Assembly (NCBI GenBank): GCA_964531375.1
Contig: CAZHDO010000001.1
Coordinates: 262,861-311,884 of the forward strand
Origin: an uncultured Candidatus Saccharibacteria bacterium
GTDB taxonomy: Bacteria; Patescibacteriota; Minisyncoccia; Phycocordibacterales; UBA12445
DNA length: 49,024 nucleotides
Direction of reading: 5' to 3'
The translations under genes and the position numbers were made by a program. The notes beneath the pieces were generated by a model. The model was not told the DNA's origin, did not search any database, and worked only from the letters and a program-made list of their open reading frames with translations. Position 1 is the stretch's first letter; every line of letters starts with the position of its first letter. This document shows positions 610 through 30,131 of this stretch, in pieces.

Positions 610-2271
610 TTAATCCATAATTAATCTTATAAGTCGTATTTCATCGAAAGTAAATTTATCTCCAAGATATGTTTTTACTGGACTTAGTAAATATTTTCCG
701 TTAGTAGTTCCAACAGACATTAGTGCAGCACGGATTTTTATTTGTTTTGTTTTTGAGACTGTTTTTGTTAAATAAGAAAAATTTATTTCTGGGTCTTCTT
801 CTTTTATTTTTTCTAAATGATTAAAAATAGTATTAGCTGTAACTCCGCGAATACTACACATTTCTTTAATGGTTTTTCCCTGTTCAAATAATTTTTTTGT
901 TTCGTCTATTGTGCTAATTTTTTTTGTGATATTTTTTTTAATTTTTCCTTTTAAAACTCCACCGATACTTTTAATATATTTTTCTTGATTATTTGTGATT
1001 TCTTTAGTGCTCATATTTCGGAGGTCATCTGCATGTTCGTGAGATGAATCGATAAATTGTTTATCTTGCTCAAAAACCTCCTCGTTTATTTTTAAAGCGA
1101 TTTCGTTCATTCCAACAAGAGAAAGCCCCGCAAGCGAGCGAACACGAGAAAGGGCTACATATCCCATTCCAGGCTCAAAAGCCCTTGTAAGGTCAATTTT
1201 GGCCGTATCCAAGCTCATTCCTTGGCTTTTGTGGACTGTTATTGCCCAGGCAAGACGGAGCGGGTATTGCATTATTTCAGCTTTAATTTTTCCATCTTCC
1301 TCTATTGTCCATCTTGCTGGATTAACATTTATTGTTTTTCCAGAAACTGTTCTTACTGTAATTCCAGAATTATCGCATGCAGTAATAATTCCTTGTGTGC
1401 CGTTTACGTATCCTTCTTCAAAATTATTTTTTGTAAATATTACTCGAGCATCTTTTTTTAATCGAAGTCTTTCGGGAGATAGACAGCCTTTTTTTAAAGT
1501 CTCTGCAAGAAATTCTTGTCCCTTATTTATCATTTCATATTCAAACATTTTTCCTGGAATTTTTTCTAGTTCACGTTCGTTTTCTATGTCGACATTTGCA
1601 TTGTGAGAATAAATTTTAGTTGGCTCATCTTTGCTGTTTACTTTTCCCTGGCAGGAAGAGTTCAATTTATAAATTATTTCAGGAGTTACATTATTTTTTC
1701 TGATTGAATTTAAAATCTCTAAAAAAGCATCGTCATTTTGCCTGTGTTGTTCTTCTAGATAGCAAATTTTTGGAGCCAGATTGTTCCAGCTTTCTGAATG
1801 GTATGCAAAAAGTGATTCTTCCTCCCCCTCTCTACTTACTGGTGGAAGTTGAAAGAAGTCTCCACAAAAAATAACCTGTAAACCCCCGAAGGGTAAATTA
1901 TTTCTTTTAAACGATTGCAGAACTTGGTCGACAAGATTTAGTCTAAAATGGTGAAGCATAGATATCTCGTCAATTATCAAAACCTTTGTCTTTTCAAACC
2001 TCTTCCAAAGATATGGTTTTTCTTCCAGGTTTTCTATGTCACAAGGAGAAAGAGAGCTTCTAATACCAAGTCCAGACCATGCATGAATGGTCTGTCCGCC
2101 CATGTGAGAAGCTGCTATTCCAGTAGAGGCCGTAACCCCAACTTCGACATCGTTGTCTTTTAAATATTTTATATATTGATTTAAGAGGTAAGTTTTTCCA
2201 CTTCCCGCCGCCCCAGTAACAAAAGCACTGTGCCCCATTTTTAATATATCGAGTGCCTCTTTTTGTGTCAT
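610..2271 (-). CDS. PIF1-family (SF1B) DNA helicase with a C-terminal helix-turn-helix
   Basis: Walker A GAAGSGKT, TASTGIAA, IIDEISML, GDFFQLPPV, QYPLRLAWAITVHKSQGMSLD and YVALSRVR; HTH-like tail (KTIKEMCSIRGVTANTIFNHL). Confidence 0.9.
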   Translation of the reverse strand: MTQKEALDILKMGHSAFVTGAAGSGKTYLLNQYIKYLKDNDVEVGVTASTGIAASHMGGQTIHAWSGLGIRSSLSPCDIENLEEKPYLWKRFEKTKVLIIDEISMLHHFRLNLVDQVLQSFKRNNLPFGGLQVIFCGDFFQLPPVSREGEEESLFAYHSESWNNLAPKICYLEEQHRQNDDAFLEILNSIRKNNVTPEIIYKLNSSCQGKVNSKDEPTKIYSHNANVDIENERELEKIPGKMFEYEMINKGQEFLAETLKKGCLSPERLRLKKDARVIFTKNNFEEGYVNGTQGIITACDNSGITVRTVSGKTINVNPARWTIEEDGKIKAEIMQYPLRLAWAITVHKSQGMSLDTAKIDLTRAFEPGMGYVALSRVRSLAGLSLVGMNEIALKINEEVFEQDKQFIDSSHEHADDLRNMSTKEITNNQEKYIKSIGGVLKGKIKKNITKKISTIDETKKLFEQGKTIKEMCSIRGVTANTIFNHLEKIKEEDPEINFSYLTKTVSKTKQIKIRAALMSVGTTNGKYLLSPVKTYLGDKFTFDEIRLIRLIMD

Positions 2272-2376
2272 AGATGGATATTACTATAACAGAAAAAACT
2301 AAAGAACAAAGTTTCTTTTTTAAAAATGTATTTATTATTTTTAAGCGGAACTTTTATGTTGTATAATTAAACGACA

Positions 2377-3168
2377 ATGGAAAAATTTGTTGATAATAAT
2401 TTAAAAGAAGGCAATAAAGAAATGCAGGAAAAAATTCCTAAATTTATTAATTTTGTTTACGGAAAAATTGAAAGAAAATCAACGATTTCTGCTGAACAGG
2501 AAATGGCTGCAAAAAATGCTTTTTTTAATGCGATTTTTGAATTAGAAAAAGAATGGCAAGTTGATATTCCAATGAAGATAAGATACTTGATATGGGACAG
2601 TGGGGCCTTTAGAGATGTGGATGAGAATAACCCGCGTTCAAAAAAATATTGTTTTGCCGTACGTGATCATAAAAATGACTTTGTTTATATTAATCCAGAA
2701 ATTTTCTCAGTTTTTCCAAAGGATGCCGAAAGTATAATTAAACATGAAACTGCTCATATGGTTGTCGAAAAACTTGTTGGCGACTTAGGTGTATACAGAA
2801 AATCTTATTTTTTTGAAGAAGGTACTGCTGGACTTGACGGCGCAACAGCAAGGCTGATTTCTAAAATAAAAAAGGAGGGAATAAAAGAAATACCAAACCC
2901 GCTTTTGTTTCAATCGGTGCTGGATATAAAGAATATGGGAGGTGATAGTAATAAGGAGTCTTTTACTGAACAGGTGGCTTATCTCGTTTTATTCTCATGT
3001 GTTGAGTTTTTAAGAGAACGACATGGAGAAAAGAAAATAATAGAAATATATAAAAATATTAAGGAGTCTGGTTCCTTGGAAAATTCATATCAGCAATTAT
3101 GCAAAGAGTCTCTAAATGGTGCTATCTTAGAGTGGAATGAATTTGTCAAAAATAAAACACAAATATAG
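2377..3168 (+). CDS. Hypothetical protein, putative zincin metallopeptidase
   Basis: 263-aa ORF with HETAH (HExxH) and a downstream FEEG glutamate; TATAAT 9 nt upstream of the ATG. Confidence 0.55.
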   Translation: MEKFVDNNLKEGNKEMQEKIPKFINFVYGKIERKSTISAEQEMAAKNAFFNAIFELEKEWQVDIPMKIRYLIWDSGAFRDVDENNPRSKKYCFAVRDHKNDFVYINPEIFSVFPKDAESIIKHETAHMVVEKLVGDLGVYRKSYFFEEGTAGLDGATARLISKIKKEGIKEIPNPLLFQSVLDIKNMGGDSNKESFTEQVAYLVLFSCVEFLRERHGEKKIIEIYKNIKESGSLENSYQQLCKESLNGAILEWNEFVKNKTQI

Positions 3169-3172
3169 TTAT

Positions 3173-3487
3173 TTATTTTTTAACCCACCTTTTATCATCT
3201 CTGGAATATAATTTATCCATAACATTTTTCCAGTGCTTATCTAGGTCGATTTTTTGTGAATTTGCTAGACAGACGACAGACCAAATTATATCAGCCATTT
3301 CGTCGCCCATGTCATTTTCTTTTGTTCCTTCTCTTTTTTTCTTTGGTCCAAAATTATGGTTTACTTCACGAGCAAGCTCCCCTGTTTCTTCCATTAACCG
3401 CGCAAGAATTTCATGCGGTTTCCAGTACCCCTCAATATACTGCCCCATCCAATCGTCAACTTCTTTTTGTAATTTATTTAATGACAT
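3173..3487 (-). CDS. MazG-like nucleotide pyrophosphohydrolase (YpjD-like)
   Basis: LARLMEETGELAREVNH and DEMADIIW, the MazG ExxE...ExxD acidic motif. Confidence 0.85.
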   Translation of the reverse strand: MSLNKLQKEVDDWMGQYIEGYWKPHEILARLMEETGELAREVNHNFGPKKKREGTKENDMGDEMADIIWSVVCLANSQKIDLDKHWKNVMDKLYSRDDKRWVKK

Positions 3488-3498
3488 TTTTAATTAAA

Positions 3499-4329
3499 TT
3501 ATTTTTTTAAATTTTCTATAATATCTTTATGTTTCTGGTATTCTTCCCAAGATTTTTTTAAGAAGTCTTCAAAAGATATTTTTCCGTTTTCGTGTTCTTT
3601 ATAGAGTTCTCCAAAATATTCAGAAAGAATTTTTTCGCCAATTTTTATATCTTGCCACTCTTTGTAAACTTTATGTTCTCTGTTATTTGTAGACCCTTGA
3701 ATTGTTTTATTATTATTTGCAATAGAAGAAGCCAATATCTCACTTAATCTCCATTCAGAATGTGGAGAATCAAATTTTTTCTTATCGCTATCAGGAAAAA
3801 CTTCTAACCATTTTTTGAAATAGAGAAAATGGGTTATTTCGTGGATACTAACACTCTTTATTGTATTGTCGTCAAATTTATAAAAAAGACTGAATGACCA
3901 TTTGTCTAAAAATCTCGGACAGATGGGATTAATGGAAACATAAGCCTTTATTTCTTTAATATTTTCTGGATATTTTGTTTCAAAGTCTTTTGATAAATTA
4001 GCTAAATTTTTCTCCGCAATTTCATCCCATTTCTCTTGGAAATTATCTCTAGCTTTTTCTATGTTATCTTTGTTTTCTATTAAATATTTTTTAAAATATT
4101 GTTCACATTTATTATAAAAAATATTTTTATCTGTAATTCCACCAACCATCTCTTTTAGTTTTGGATGGGCATCGTAAACTCTATAATTCCAATTAAGTAT
4201 TTTTGTGTCGTCTGGGTAACAAAAATTGAAAATTAAATCTACTTCCATTTTTGTTGGCGCTAATTCAAATTTCACCTTAGGTATATTTATTTTTTCTATT
4301 TTTGAATTTAAGTTATCGAGATTTTTCAT
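3499..4329 (-). CDS. Hypothetical protein, putative zincin metallopeptidase
   Basis: HEITH motif plus a later LSEILA glutamate. ATG at 4329 was preferred over the TTG at 4332. Confidence 0.55.
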   Translation of the reverse strand: MKNLDNLNSKIEKINIPKVKFELAPTKMEVDLIFNFCYPDDTKILNWNYRVYDAHPKLKEMVGGITDKNIFYNKCEQYFKKYLIENKDNIEKARDNFQEKWDEIAEKNLANLSKDFETKYPENIKEIKAYVSINPICPRFLDKWSFSLFYKFDDNTIKSVSIHEITHFLYFKKWLEVFPDSDKKKFDSPHSEWRLSEILASSIANNNKTIQGSTNNREHKVYKEWQDIKIGEKILSEYFGELYKEHENGKISFEDFLKKSWEEYQKHKDIIENLKK

Positions 4330-4338
4330 CAAGATTTT

Positions 4339-4409
4339 TTAAAAATCAGCATTACCGGGCGTTCTTGGGAATGTAATTACATCCCTAATATTATCCGAAT
4401 GCCACTTAA
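4339..4409 (-). repeat. Direct repeat copy 2 of the asnS 3' end
   Basis: Aligns to 5177..5245 with 8 substitutions and one 2-nt indel (manual alignment). Confidence 0.9.
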
Positions 4410-5160
4410 GAGCTATATTGTGAATAAAATATTCGACATCCTCAAACTTTATCCCTAAGGGTTTTAGAAAAGGTTTAATCTTTTTTAGCATGAATGCGTG
4501 AGCGTCCCTTTCATCTTTAAGTTTAGCTGCCAGCCATTCTTCAGTATTTTTGTTTTGTTGCTCTTTATTTTTCCTATATTCCGGATCGTCGTGAGATATA
4601 AAATGGCCTATTTCATGCAGAATTGTAAGTAGATTTCCTAGTCTAGACATATCACCATCTAAAGTTACTATTTTGTATTTACCATCTTGGGCAAAACCCA
4701 AAAAAGATGGCTCATCTACCGAAATATGTTTCTCTGGATATTTTTTTAATAGATACGATTTTATAAAAGAATCTGGAGAAAAAAACACTTCAAAATTTTC
4801 AGGATATAATTTTTTCAATTCCAATAAACTATCTCCAGTCTGGAGAGTTAAATTTTCTAATTTTCTAAAATGTCTCGGTTCGTAAAGAATATTTTGCAAC
4901 AATTCTTTATCTTTTCTATTTAACTGTTCGCAATCTTTTGAGTTTTTAAACGAGGAATACTTATTAAGCGAACTATAAGAAAAAGAAAGTTTAAAGTTTT
5001 CGTTACTAATCTCTACGGTATCATCATCTTTGTATTCTATTTTCCCTAAAGATGTACTTAGCCTACTGAGAACTTCTTTCGTTTTCTCATTCGATAAAAC
5101 ATCTGATGGCTTCTCTAACTTACTTCGCAAATAGTTAATAGGATTATTTTCAACTGACAT
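4339..5160 (-). CDS. Hypothetical HExxH protein whose C-terminus is a copy of the AsnRS C-terminus
   Basis: LHEIGH and ERDAH motifs; ends [18 protein letters not shown] versus Asn[20 protein letters not shown]. Confidence 0.7.
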   Translation of the reverse strand: MSVENNPINYLRSKLEKPSDVLSNEKTKEVLSRLSTSLGKIEYKDDDTVEISNENFKLSFSYSSLNKYSSFKNSKDCEQLNRKDKELLQNILYEPRHFRKLENLTLQTGDSLLELKKLYPENFEVFFSPDSFIKSYLLKKYPEKHISVDEPSFLGFAQDGKYKIVTLDGDMSRLGNLLTILHEIGHFISHDDPEYRKNKEQQNKNTEEWLAAKLKDERDAHAFMLKKIKPFLKPLGIKFEDVEYFIHNIALKWHSDNIRDVITFPRTPGNADF

Positions 5161-5176
5161 TTATTTTTTACTTAAA

Positions 5177-5245
5177 TTAAAAATCAGCATTACCTGGCGT
5201 TCTTGGGAATGGAATTACGTCTCGGATATTTTCCATGCCAGTTAA
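5177..5245 (-). repeat. Direct repeat copy 1 (functional asnS 3' end)
   Basis: Partner of the 4339..4409 copy. Confidence 0.9.
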
Positions 5246-6571
5246 ATACATTATCATTCTTTCGAAGCCGAGACCGAAGCCGGCGTGTTTTGAACCTCCG
5301 TATTTTCTAAGGTCTAGATACCATGAATAATCCTCTTCTTTTAGGCCCATTTCTTTTATTCTTGAGATAAGTTTGTCATATCTTTCTTCACGTTGAGAAC
5401 CTCCAATAATTTCACCGATTCCTGGTACAAGTAGGTCCATGGCGGCAACAGTTTTTCCGTCATCGTTTTGCCTCATGTAAAAAGCTTTGAAATCTTTTGG
5501 ATAGTCCATAACGAACACTGGGCTCTTGAATATAACTTCTGTTAAATATTTTTCATGTTCAGTTTGTAATTCCTTACCCCAGCCAACAGGATATTCAAAT
5601 TTACTTTTTTCTTCGACTGATAAATCTTCGAGTAATTTTACAGCTTCTGTGTAGGTTATTCTTTTAAATTCGGAGTTTAAAACATTATTTAATCTTTCTA
5701 AAACGTTTGTGTCGATAAATTTATTAAAGAAATTCATTTCTTCTGGTGCATTGTCGAGAACATATTTGATTATGTATTTGATCATTTCTTCTGCCAACTC
5801 CGAATCTTCTTTTAGTCCAGCAAAAGCAATCTCAGGCTCGATCATCCAGAATTCTGCGGCATGTCTTTTTGTATTTGAATTTTCTGCGCGAAAAGTCGGT
5901 CCGAATGTATATATTTTATTAAACGCAAGCGCAAACGTCTCTCCTTCGAGTTGGCCACTTACAGTAAGGTTTGTTTCTTTTGCAAAAAAATCTTTTGAAT
6001 AATCTATTTTTCCATCTTTATCTTTAATCGGATTTAATAAATTTTGAGTCGTTACATGGAACATTTCACCTGCACCCTCAGCATCACTACCTGTAATTAT
6101 CGGTGTGTGTACATACACAAATCCTTTTTCATTAAAGAATTTATGAATAGCAAAAGCCGCAAGTGATCTTACCCTAAATACCGCCGAAAAAGTATTTGAC
6201 CTAGGTCTTAGGTGAGCAATCGTTCTCAGGTATTCAAATGTGTGTCGTTTCTTTTGAAGCGGGAAACTTTCGTCTGAGTCCGCAAGTATTTCTATTTTTT
6301 CTGCTTTTAACTCAAAAGCCTGTTCTTTGGCTGGAGATTTGACTATTTCACCTTCAATAGAGATTGCTGAACCAATTCTTATTTTTTCAATTTCTTTAAA
6401 ATTAGAAAGCTTGTCATCAAAAACCACCTGTAGGTTTTTAAAGAAAGTCCCATCGTTTAATTCAATAAACCCAAAAGTTCCAGAAGACCTAGCTGTTCTA
6501 ACCCAGCCATTTACTATCATTTTCTGCCCTATTAATTTCTCTCCTTCCTTAAAAATATTTTTTATTTCCAT
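5177..6571 (-). CDS. asnS: Asparagine--tRNA ligase
   Basis: OB-fold N-terminus (GWVRTAR, FIELNDG), [49 protein letters not shown]. Confidence 0.97.
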
Positions 6572-6654
6572 AATTTTTTAAATATATACTTTTATAGTTT
6601 TATTTCAAATAATTTTAATTATACCAAAAACCGCAATATTATATAGTTTTATAT

Positions 6655-6682
6655 AAAAACACCTTATTGTTAAGGTGTTTTT
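6655..6682 (-). terminator. Intrinsic terminator-like hairpin after the exporter operon
   Basis: Perfect 12-bp stem AAAAACACCTTA-ttgt-TAAGGTGTTTTT, 10 nt downstream of the ORF ending at 6692. Confidence 0.7.
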
Positions 6683-6691
6683 GGGTGTTAT

Positions 6692-7150
6692 TTATTTTAA
6701 TGGGGTTGTTGAAGCTGGTCTTATTTGTACCATCTCGGCATTCATACTTCCATCTGGGTTTGCTTGTCCTGTTATTGTGACCATCTCACCAGTTTTAAGA
6801 TCTTCGTTGTTACCTGGAACAGATTTTGTTACTTGTGTTGTTTTAAGTAAAAAAACATTTCTAGAACCACCATCTCTTAATTTAACAGTAATCCCTGTTT
6901 CGTCTTTTGATATTACTTCGCCCGATGCCATTCCTCCCAAGGCGCCTCTTTGTCTCGCTGCATTGTTTGAACCATTTTGGCCGCCCACATTGTTCATTTG
7001 ACCAAACTGACCGCCAGCTCCTCTTGTTGCTATCTTCTTACTTCCAGCATAGCTGTTACCTGCATAAAATGAACCCACTGCAACTAAGACTATTACAACT
7101 CCTGTGATAATTTTATTATTCATATTATTTTTTATAATTATTTTATTCAT
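6692..7150 (-). CDS. Membrane-anchored hypothetical protein (DUF5666-like)
   Basis: N-terminal TM segment, Gly/Gln-rich linker, then GEVISKD...LKTGEMVTITGQANPDGSMNAEMVQIR, a small beta-barrel of DUF5666 type. Confidence 0.6.
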   Translation of the reverse strand: MNKIIIKNNMNNKIITGVVIVLVAVGSFYAGNSYAGSKKIATRGAGGQFGQMNNVGGQNGSNNAARQRGALGGMASGEVISKDETGITVKLRDGGSRNVFLLKTTQVTKSVPGNNEDLKTGEMVTITGQANPDGSMNAEMVQIRPASTTPLK

Positions 7151-8366
7151 ACCTTAGCGCCTGAATTGGATTTAACCTTGCGGCTCTGTAAGCAGGATAA
7201 TATCCAAAAATTATTCCAATGCCCGCAGATACACCAAATGCCAATAAGACAGAATTTAAAGATACGCTTGCTTGAAGTATTCCTGTGTAAGTAATTCCAT
7301 ATGAGGCGATCCATCCAAGCAGTATTCCCATAAACCCCCCAGTGAAAGTAAGCATTATTGCTTCAATGAGAAACTGAAGTTCAATGTCTCGTCTTTTTGC
7401 ACCAATAGCTTTTCTTAATCCGATTTCTCTTGTTCTTTCTGTTACTGTTGTAAGCATCATATTCATAATTCCAATACCTCCAACAACTAAAGAAATTCCA
7501 GCAATCGCAGATAGTAGATATGTAAGAGTTGTTGTAATTGTTGAGGCAGATGCCACTATGTCAGCCTGGTTCATAATATTAAAATCAAGAACTGTTGGAT
7601 CTTTGATGTGATGTTCTGTAATAAGTATATCTGTAATCTGGTTTTGAATTTCAGTCATCACATCTGCGCTTTCAGCTGATACATTTATCGAAGTAACATA
7701 TTCATCGCCCGATAAATATCTTTGTGCTGTGCTTATTGGTATATAAATTACGTCGTCTTGGCTTCCCATACCAGAGCCTCCTTTTGCTTTCATGACTCCG
7801 ATAACTTTAAAATCCATTTTACTAATACGGACAGTTTGTCCAATTGGATCTGAGTCTACCCCAAAAAGATCATTTCTTGTTGTTGGTCCCAGCACGGCTA
7901 CTTTCGAGCCACTTTTTACGTTTTGGTCAGTAATAAATGTTCCAGTATCAACTTCAATGTTTCTAACCATAGAATATGGAGGAGTAATTCCATTTATTGT
8001 TGTATTTGTATTTGTCCCTTTTGCGGTTACTTGATATCTTTTATTTATCTCAGGTGCAACTCCTTTCGCAAGGGTAACTGCTTTTTCGATAGCAGTTACG
8101 TCAGATATTTTTAATGATTTAGCAGTTCCTCTTCCTGCACTCACAGTCATTCCAGGGCCTCTTTGAGCTCCGGGTTGAATTACAAGTAGATTTGAACCAA
8201 TTGATTGAATACTAGATTGTATAGAATTTTGAGCCCCTTGTCCTATAGCAACCATGGCAATAACAGAACCAATACCAATAACAATTCCCAGCATTGTTAA
8301 TCCTGATCTAATTTTATTTGCAGAAAGTGCTGAGTACGTTTCTTGAAACAGATCGATTAATTTCAT
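7143..8366 (-). CDS. MacB/FtsX-family ABC transporter permease
   Basis: RSGLTMLGIVIGIGSVIAM, GGIGIMNMMLTTVTERTREIGLRKAIGAK, YPAYRAARLNPIQALRYE. Confidence 0.93.
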   Translation of the reverse strand: MKLIDLFQETYSALSANKIRSGLTMLGIVIGIGSVIAMVAIGQGAQNSIQSSIQSIGSNLLVIQPGAQRGPGMTVSAGRGTAKSLKISDVTAIEKAVTLAKGVAPEINKRYQVTAKGTNTNTTINGITPPYSMVRNIEVDTGTFITDQNVKSGSKVAVLGPTTRNDLFGVDSDPIGQTVRISKMDFKVIGVMKAKGGSGMGSQDDVIYIPISTAQRYLSGDEYVTSINVSAESADVMTEIQNQITDILITEHHIKDPTVLDFNIMNQADIVASASTITTTLTYLLSAIAGISLVVGGIGIMNMMLTTVTERTREIGLRKAIGAKRRDIELQFLIEAIMLTFTGGFMGILLGWIASYGITYTGILQASVSLNSVLLAFGVSAGIGIIFGYYPAYRAARLNPIQALRYE

Positions 8367-29700: not shown

Positions 29701-29843
29701 TTGTTAATTATACTAAAAATGTAATAAAAAGAAAATACTTTCTATATATTCGATTTGAGTTTTTAACGCTTTAATGTTATAAATTATAATGTTTTTGTAG
29801 TACAGAAGGTAGCGCAAAAAGTTGTCTTTTTATAATTAAATAT

Positions 29844-29914
29844 TGCGAGATCGTCTAATGGTAGGACAGCGGCCTTTGAAGCCGTTTATCCTGGTTCGAA
29901 TCCAGGCCTCGCAG
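29844..29914 (+). tRNA. tRNA-Gln(TTG)
   Basis: Acceptor TGCGAGA/CCTCGCA, anticodon arm GCGGC-CTTTGAA-GCCGT, T arm CCTGG-TTCGAAT-CCAGG; CCA not encoded; TATAAT at 29831. Confidence 0.93.
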
Positions 29915-30131
29915 TTAGTAGCGCAGCTAATGTCTGCGAGGAAAAAGCAACTTCTTTGCTTTTGAGTTGAATTCGAACTGCGGAGCTATAATTTTATGAG
30001 CATTTGGCGAATAAAATAGCGAGCCGGTGATCGACTTATTTTTATTCATAAAAATAGAAGTCCTCTTGTGGGGCAGACAAATTTTTTGGAAGAAAAATTT
30101 AGCCGAGGGAGAAATTCCAGACCTCGCAGTT
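29901..30131 (+). mobile_element. ~200-bp structured insertion flanked by a duplicated tRNA-Gln 3' end
   Basis: TCCAGGCCTCGCAGTT (29901..29916) versus TCCAGACCTCGCAGTT (30116..30131); several hairpins in between. Confidence 0.55.

Follow-up and report, generated by a model that had tools for sequence, protein, structure and literature searches.

The stretch of DNA analysed here (the window) comprises 49,024 nucleotides of the genome of an uncultured Candidatus Saccharibacteria bacterium (GenBank assembly GCA_964531375.1, contig CAZHDO010000001.1, positions 262,861 to 311,884 of the forward strand), a freshwater member of the Patescibacteria (candidate phyla radiation, CPR) that is represented by a metagenome-assembled genome (MAG). 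Near its beginning lies asnS, which codes for asparaginyl-tRNA synthetase (AsnRS), followed by an open reading frame (ORF) for a 273-residue protein with an HExxH motif; we refer to the latter as the passenger gene. The two genes and the repeat that links them are all on the minus strand, and the repeat is read below in the sense of the genes. Both ORFs end with NIRDVI, a P (asnS) or a T (passenger), and 10 further residues, in the same frame, and both stop at TAA. The corresponding DNA forms a direct repeat of 58 nt (4339-4396 and 5177-5234), in which 51 of 58 positions are identical at a spacing of 838; a repeat search ranked it as the top direct repeat of the first 12 kb. A whole-genome DNA search revealed no third copy of the tail in the 0.86-Mb genome, only these two. 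A preliminary description of this DNA had reported that the end of asnS recurs 838 bp downstream as the end of the next ORF, and had listed seven differences between the copies. Both observations are confirmed.

The same arrangement was recovered in several assemblies. Two Logan contigs (24.4 kb and 4.8 kb), which come from two different samples, cover positions 3300-6700 with no differences; two ENA contigs from two further assemblies, compared over 4.5 kb, are identical to the region; and six contigs from several assemblies carry the protein in an unchanged gene order. The longest exact run common to both copies is 18 nt, and no 31-mer is common to them. Because independent assemblies agree with no differences and the copies have no 31-mer in common, we conclude that the repeat is real. 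An assembly chimera or a collapsed repeat, which the preliminary description had named as an outcome that would overturn it, has, as far as contigs can show, a negligible probability, since different assemblers arrived at the same sequence from different samples and 18 consecutive common bases are too few to mislead an assembler working with k = 31.

The passenger gene had been called an orphan, yet it belongs to a sizeable family. An exhaustive HMMER search returned at least 156 matching cluster representatives at E <= 1e-3, with lengths of 250-330 residues, which have in common the HExGH motif, the motif ERNAWAFALK and a C-terminal motif with the consensus ihnyaLksYsdsireki (IHxxALxxYSDxIRxxI). 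A profile hidden Markov model was built from 149 homologs, with the passenger protein left out. It aligns with residues 4-262 of the passenger protein at 211 bits, with high posterior probability up to the end of the alignment, which reads …ALKWHSDNIRDVI (likewise …FIHNIALKWHSDNIRDVI) and stops exactly at residue 262. According to per-node log-odds, residues 246-257 (IHNIALKWHSDN) contribute +19.6 bits under the family profile, while the asnS peptide placed at the same offset scores -10.3 bits; NIRDVI fits the family profile and AsnRS alike, and the 11-residue tail that follows it obtains -2.6 bits from the former. In a 40-member alignment, H247 and L251 do not vary and S255 is at least 90% conserved; homologs natively read SDNIRDI (P0092), SDNIKDI (P0123) and ALKWYSD (P0118) in this region. 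As the preliminary description had proposed to check, homologs do stop before the AsnRS-like tail: an FPRTPG-like end is present in 0 of 149, and no class II synthetase tail was found within 1.5 kb of the homologs in 14 other genomes. Since the profile alignment and the per-node scores fit the family up to that point, and the homologs are devoid of the tail, the passenger gene is native to about residue 260-262, with only its last 36-42 nt derived from asnS. Thus, of the ~70 nt that had been described as a copy of the asnS tail, the similarity extends throughout, while descent from asnS is limited to the end.

The differences between the copies are unevenly distributed. Five of them are located in the 15 nt that precede GTAATT (GAAAATATCCGAGAC versus GATAATATTAGGGAT), and two in the 42 nt from GTAATT to TAA (Fisher p = 0.011). 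Because the density of differences drops at this point, from 5/15 to 2/42, the crossover most likely took place at or beside the exact hexamer GTAATT, inside a patch with 13 of 18 matching bases; the first difference past the hexamer (C/A, which changes P to T) may be part of the joint itself. So placed, the joint sits where two unrelated proteins chance to read alike, namely the family motif YSDxIRxxI (here SDNIRDVI) and the end of AsnRS. The silent differences, among them those in three codons (ATC/ATT, CGA/AGG and GAC/GAT), had been taken as a sign that the tails represent two asnS alleles, each under selection. However, I-R-D lies in the passenger's own family motif SDxIRxxI, and the differences in these codons therefore exist because two unrelated genes each encode I-R-D in their own way; they are not synonymous drift between alleles.

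The preliminary description had placed the start of the copy further upstream, at TTAA, with a 2-nt indel inside the copy and a silent excess due to two selected alleles. Indeed, TTAAGTGGCAT in the passenger gene matches TTAACTGGCAT in asnS (5235-5245) at 10 of 11 positions across a 2-nt offset, and this TTAAxTGGCAT match uses a GGC codon that is specific to this genome's asnS; a 10/11 match within 30 nt was obtained for 0.4% of random segment pairs from the window. W253 of the passenger protein, which is atypical for the family (p = 0.006), also favors this anatomy. The presumed 2-nt insertion is, however, contained in the TCG codon of S255, and the presumed E-to-D replacement is D256, so that an indel and a substitution would have had to create two residues that are both family consensus, one of them nearly invariant. 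The family spacing from L251 to I258 is intact in the passenger protein despite the supposed indel; the uneven density of differences is not accounted for; and the tail copy has derived synonymous states in common with the resident asnS, which speaks against a distant allele. We consider this anatomy very improbable, and read the TTAAxTGGCAT match as pre-existing or heteroduplex-patched similarity and not as the start of the duplication. The coordinates of the features are collected in Table 1.

Table 1. Features of the region between pif1 and asnS (positions in the window)
Feature	Position	Strand	Remarks
asnS	5177..6571	-	464 aa, intact
273-aa HExxH ORF (passenger gene)	4339..5160	-	next ORF after asnS
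Spacer of 16 nt, asnS stop to HExxH gene ATG	5161..5176	-	unrelated to DNA after asnS in relatives (local alignment to G001, G002 and L061 flanks, p 0.3-0.9)
Native body of accessory HExxH gene (weakly M78/ImmA-like), residues 1-260	4381..5160	-	H182ExGH186, E217-R218, C-terminal helix motif IHNIALKWHSDNIRD
TTAAGTGGCAT	4399..4409	-	10/11 match to asnS 5235-5245 in another frame; encodes (L)KWH inside native family helix
Joint zone, AATATTAGGGATGTAATT versus asnS AATATCCGAGACGTAATT	4375..4392	-	13/18; exact 6-nt microhomology GTAATT at 4375-4380
Copy 1 of truly duplicated segment, functional asnS end (GTAATT CCA TTC CCA AGA ACG CCA GGT AAT GCT GAT TTT TAA)	5177..5218	-	40/42 identical to 4339-4380
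Certainly asnS-derived tail of chimeric ORF (ACA TTC CCA AGA ACG CCC GGT AAT GCT GAT TTT TAA, 11 residues and stop)	4339..4374	-	supported by profile score, homologs and synonymous states
Variable slot	2305..5176	.	asnS stop codon to about 30 nt upstream of pif1
276-aa HEITH protein	3499-4329	-	slot gene after chimeric HExxH gene, 9-nt spacer
MazG	3173-3487	-	slot gene
263-aa HETAH protein	2377-3168	+	slot gene
pif1-like helicase	610..2271	-	Pfam PIF1 3.8e-39; right-hand flank kept in G001-G003 and L061

The source of the copied tail was sought by comparison with the asnS genes of the related genomes G001-G003, which represent the three other species of the genus. Over its last 58 nt, the copy is identical to this genome's asnS at 51 positions and to the asnS genes of the relatives at 42-47; the relatives agree among themselves at 43-48. 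The codons ACG and GCT are found in both copies of the duplicated part, and in none of G001-G003. The metagenome locus L061 carries GTA, ATT, GCT and CCC as the copy does, yet 5 of 42 positions distinguish it from the copy, versus 2 of 42 for the resident asnS. Because the copy is closest to this genome's asnS and has lineage-specific synonymous states in common with it, the tail was copied either from the asnS of this lineage itself or from that of a conspecific strain, in an event that is young relative to the species splits. A distant asnS allele is thus not the source; in the duplicated part, 40 of 42 positions agree with this genome's asnS. Sliding-window identity to five relatives could show no mosaic breakpoint in asnS, because third positions are saturated between the species.

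The asnS gene itself has an unusual distribution. Its product contains the tRNA-synt_2 domain (Pfam PF00152, 2.7e-68) and the anticodon-binding OB domain (PF01336, 1.8e-14), is full length relative to its relatives, and has a core that ends in the ...IRDVIPFPR motif. It is 85-89% identical to the asnS products of the three other species of the genus. A search of loci L130-L207 indicated that true asnS is present only in the four species of the genus; in the other 27 relatives searched, the matches, at 28-32%, are other class IIb synthetases. The nearest AsnRS outside Patescibacteria are from Clostridia/Bacillota, at 64-71% identity. Because the gene is, among these relatives, restricted to the genus and its nearest outside homologs are clostridial, asnS was itself probably acquired laterally from Bacillota, judging by these comparisons. 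GatB is present in the genome. Given the presence of GatB and the absence of asnS from sister genera, asnS may be dispensable here, and the essential target gene of the preliminary description need not be essential.

Comparison of the genes downstream of asnS across related genomes, another check that had been suggested, revealed a variable slot between asnS and pif1 that differs between species and is not bounded by tail copies. Homology with the relatives ends at the asnS stop codon and resumes at TTTCTGxTATAGTA, about 30 nt before the pif1 start. Elsewhere, the slot occupies positions 6767-8282 of locus L009, 557-3009 of L010, 5713-6084 of L011 and 1001-1311 of L061. In G002 and L061, it contains only a conserved ORF of 75-77 residues and uncharacterised role, which is probably the minimal, ancestral content. 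The slot of G001 holds three genes (the 75-77-residue ORF, a Cas2/PaaX-like protein and a 349-residue ORF), and that of G003 a methyltransferase and a nucleoside 2-deoxyribosyltransferase. No Pfam match was obtained for the 349-residue ORF (L010 907-1956, plus strand), in which G+C-encoded residues are visibly more frequent than in the neighboring sequence, as if foreign DNA had been imported recently. The start of this 75-77-residue ORF in the relatives was considered, and rejected, as a homolog of the flank after copy 2: MKNLDNL versus MKPRDNF is suggestive but not significant (p = 0.075 and 0.26).

In the window, three consecutive slot genes carry an HExxH motif, in the forms HETAH, HEITH and HEIGH. 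For two of these genes, neither Pfam nor PHROG nor PADLOC offers an assignment. Paralogy of the chimeric gene with the next two, which would have spoken for a tandem duplication, was also considered and rejected, as only the HExxH motif aligns (BLASTP, E 0.27-0.58). A PADLOC search for defense systems among the slot genes returned only sub-threshold matches. A promoter-like site lies ahead of asnS, and no terminator was found between this gene and those of the slot; because of these two features, inserted slot genes are probably read from the asnS promoter. Neither copy of the duplicated tail revealed anything with a terminator or promoter function, and the one metatranscriptome of the same sample contained no contig on the region. 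A slot whose content varies between species is the pattern expected of exchange anchored in conserved flanks.

Taken together with the position of the joint, these data make it reasonably probable that the repeat is a scar of homology-anchored illegitimate recombination between conspecific DNAs, which created a chimeric gene. In this process, DNA from a conspecific cell would have carried asnS, the 16-nt spacer and the HExxH gene, while the recipient chromosome would have carried asnS, the 9-nt spacer and the gene for the 276-residue protein. One crossover would have been homologous, inside asnS. The other would have been an illegitimate join at GTAATT, linking the 3' region of the passenger, with its NIRDVI codons, to the resident asnS tail. 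As an outcome, asnS would have remained intact, the native 3' end of the passenger would have been lost, and the resident tail with its stop codon (36-42 nt) would now end the passenger. In a mirror version, the anchor would be in pif1 and the incoming DNA would bring the asnS tail and the gene for the 276-residue protein; Campbell-type entry would be formally equivalent, with the same microhomology closing an 838-bp circle. The earlier proposal that an insertion with its own asnS tail left the displaced tail fused to the passenger is thereby retained as the most economical history, in that the passenger ends in a genuine in-frame asnS 3' end and asnS is intact; its attribution to an integrative element is not. 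A ComEC homolog is present in the genome (PF03772, 1.2e-41), and uptake of the donor DNA may have occurred by transformation. In published cases of homology-facilitated illegitimate recombination (HFIR), a one-sided homologous anchor is combined with 3-10 bp of microhomology at the joint and inserts of about 1 kb (PMC3240628). Here, the exact GTAATT, within 13 of 18 matching bases, agrees with the published range.

Several observations weigh against this history. The weakest point of our analysis is the TTAAxTGGCAT match, whose rarity by chance we can explain only by arguing that joints form at the best available similarity, or by heteroduplex patch repair. The donor arrangement, asnS followed by a full-length HExxH gene, and the empty site were not found among JGI/ENA metagenome contigs and GTDB genomes, which yielded other species only. 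Likewise, no close relative of the passenger protein was found among ~15 billion proteins, the best being 36% identical. Because the donor arrangement, an empty site and a close relative are all lacking, we infer the direction of transfer and the one-step course of events. The flank after copy 2 has no significant similarity to the asnS downstream flank of relatives (p = 0.075, 0.26), and for this reason either copy may be the resident one. As a rule, HFIR deletes DNA of the recipient and does not duplicate it. Finally, we know of no demonstration of competence in this organism.

Tandem duplication in situ would dispense with a donor. In a genome that already had a full-length HExxH gene behind asnS, an 838-bp unit would have been duplicated by unequal crossing-over or replication slippage between the NIRDVI stretches, and the second full-length copy would later have been lost or replaced by the gene for the 276-residue protein. 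The same joint at the same microhomology is predicted, and a tail copy from this genome's own lineage, with no foreign donor required, is accommodated without difficulty. A second, precise loss is required, however. Copy 2 is followed by a different spacer, of 9 nt, and by an unrelated 276-residue protein, which BLASTP aligns with the passenger only at the HExxH motif (E = 0.27), and the genome contains no remnant of the second HExxH copy that is predicted. We regard tandem duplication as unlikely.

Site-specific integration, of the type seen with e14 and phage 21 in icd, would make the two tails attL and attR of an integrase-carrying element that brought a surrogate asnS 3' end, entered the asnS tail and was later reduced to one gene. 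An insert bracketed by a directly repeated gene 3' end, with the target restored, is indeed the icd/icdC layout (PMC13626634), and a tRNA-Gln 3' end is duplicated ~200 bp downstream in the same window, so that integrase-type scars may exist in this lineage. Yet no recombinase was detected in the slot by a Pfam scan, or within 12 kb; the genome's only PF00589 matches, two tyrosine recombinases, are encoded by contigs C9 and C4 and not by C1, with serine recombinases not searched genome-wide. The bracketed 838-bp unit is a single gene, itself truncated at the joint, and no mobile element can be recognised in it. An att site inside the conserved helix of the passenger is not expected, the repeat has its left edge in sequence that is native to the family, and no asnS-tail copies at >=55% identity are present in the variable regions of G001-G003, including the G001 and G003 cassettes. 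Integration of this type, and with it the integrative-element footprint of the preliminary description, is distinctly unlikely. A broader version, in which the asnS stop region is a dedicated cassette-entry site of the genus, integron-like and located on a laterally acquired synthetase gene, is decidedly improbable; a trans-acting recombinase or an integrase-free mechanism would insert small promoterless genes at this site, to be expressed from the asnS promoter, and the two tails would be the only undecayed attL/attR pair.

Selected mimicry, in which the AsnRS-like C-terminus is kept for a function such as docking to an AsnRS partner or serving as a degradation or targeting tag, is hardly credible: the reading frame and the stop codon of the chimeric ORF are preserved, and the duplicated part differs at two positions, of which one is silent, but 42 nt with two changes are too little to reveal selection, the tail is found in only 1 of 150 proteins and is modelled as low-confidence coil, and in class IIb synthetases the AsnRS peptide is part of the folded catalytic core and not a free tag.

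If the repeat is the product of microhomology-guided recombination, its closest parallels are the HFIR events described in the naturally transformable bacteria Streptococcus pneumoniae, Acinetobacter baylyi and Pseudomonas stutzeri (PMC3240628). As in those systems, about 1 kb of foreign or variant DNA comes to lie beside an anchor gene that is conserved, its far end is attached through microhomology (published cases, 3-10 bp; here, GTAATT in a 13/18 patch), the variable segment lies between conserved backbone genes, and no mobile-element functions are required. In contrast to HFIR, whose usual outcome is deletion, the joint is inside the tail of the anchor gene and has produced a 36-42-nt duplication and an in-frame fusion. 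Moreover, HFIR is known from experiments, whereas the present case is a natural fossil in uncultured Patescibacteria, with the anchor crossover and DNA uptake inferred. The locus also resembles e14 and phage 21 in Escherichia coli icd, with its icdC fragment (Hill et al. 1989, PMC210168; PMC13626634), in that the housekeeping gene is left with a full 3' end, of which another version with slight differences lies beyond the insert. However, e14 is a 15-kb prophage with an integrase and SOS-induced excision, whereas the 838 bp bracketed here encode no recombinase. The icdC fragment stands alone as a pseudogene, while the displaced tail at our locus is the in-frame end of another gene, whose conserved motif contains the joint. 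Chimeric or fusion genes that arise by illegitimate recombination, and hotspots of gene flux between conserved core genes, offer a further parallel: a new C-terminus is obtained from a neighbor gene, and the slot of sister species holds different accessory genes. They differ in that the donor of the terminus is, in our case, the 3' end of an aminoacyl-tRNA synthetase gene, and in that convergence at the protein level (NIRDVI) supplied the microhomology.

Viewed as such a recombination scar, the locus would be a clean natural fossil of the entry of an accessory gene into a very small Patescibacteria genome, with the joint resolved to about six bases, and would show that mobile-element machinery is not required for such entry. 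The convergence at NIRDVI probably chose the site of recombination. The event is otherwise most likely an ordinary recombination scar in a gene-flux slot, though an unusually well resolved one; it does not represent an integrative element's footprint, nor does it testify to two selected asnS alleles. It also carries a methodological warning, since a silent excess in a short repeat had the appearance of purifying selection on two alleles and in fact reflects two unrelated genes that independently encode the same short peptide.

The effect of the event on the passenger protein was probably small. Since the C-terminal motif is naturally followed by no more than 11 residues in 57 of 143 homologs, loss of the native 3' end was probably harmless, and the 11 residues of foreign origin probably constitute an appendage that is disordered and neutral. 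An AlphaFold2 model based on the family alignment (predicted local distance difference test, pLDDT, 90; predicted template modelling score, pTM, 0.88) has its last helix at residues 239-263, followed by coil of falling confidence at 264-273. A subgroup of longer family members has a W/K/Y-rich C-terminal extension (…WKKTDAYKQWK…).

H182, E183, G185, H186 and E217 are invariant in 40 homologs, E-R-x-A is likewise an invariant element of the family, and E217 may be the downstream third zinc ligand of the HExxH site. The HExxH motif is reminiscent of Peptidase M78/ImmA-IrrE (PF06114), and the passenger protein matches that family (22.7 bits versus a cut-off of 22) and phrog_87 'metallo-protease' (6.4e-05), both at threshold level. 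Only 1 of 40 family members, however, reaches the Pfam threshold, and a Foldseek search of the confident model against the PDB returned no significant match (best E 0.09, template modelling score about 0.17) and listed no M78 entry. The family, which is biochemically uncharacterised, is thus better described as an undescribed HExxH family than as M78. It is sporadic in this class of Patescibacteria, with 14 of 301 genomes containing a member.

At the other duplicated 3' end in the window (29843-30131), the tRNA-Gln gene (29843-29915) ends in …AATCCAGGCCTCGCAG, and ATTCCAGACCTCGCAG recurs at 30116-30131; this second duplication may be what is left of a site-specific integration event in the same genome.

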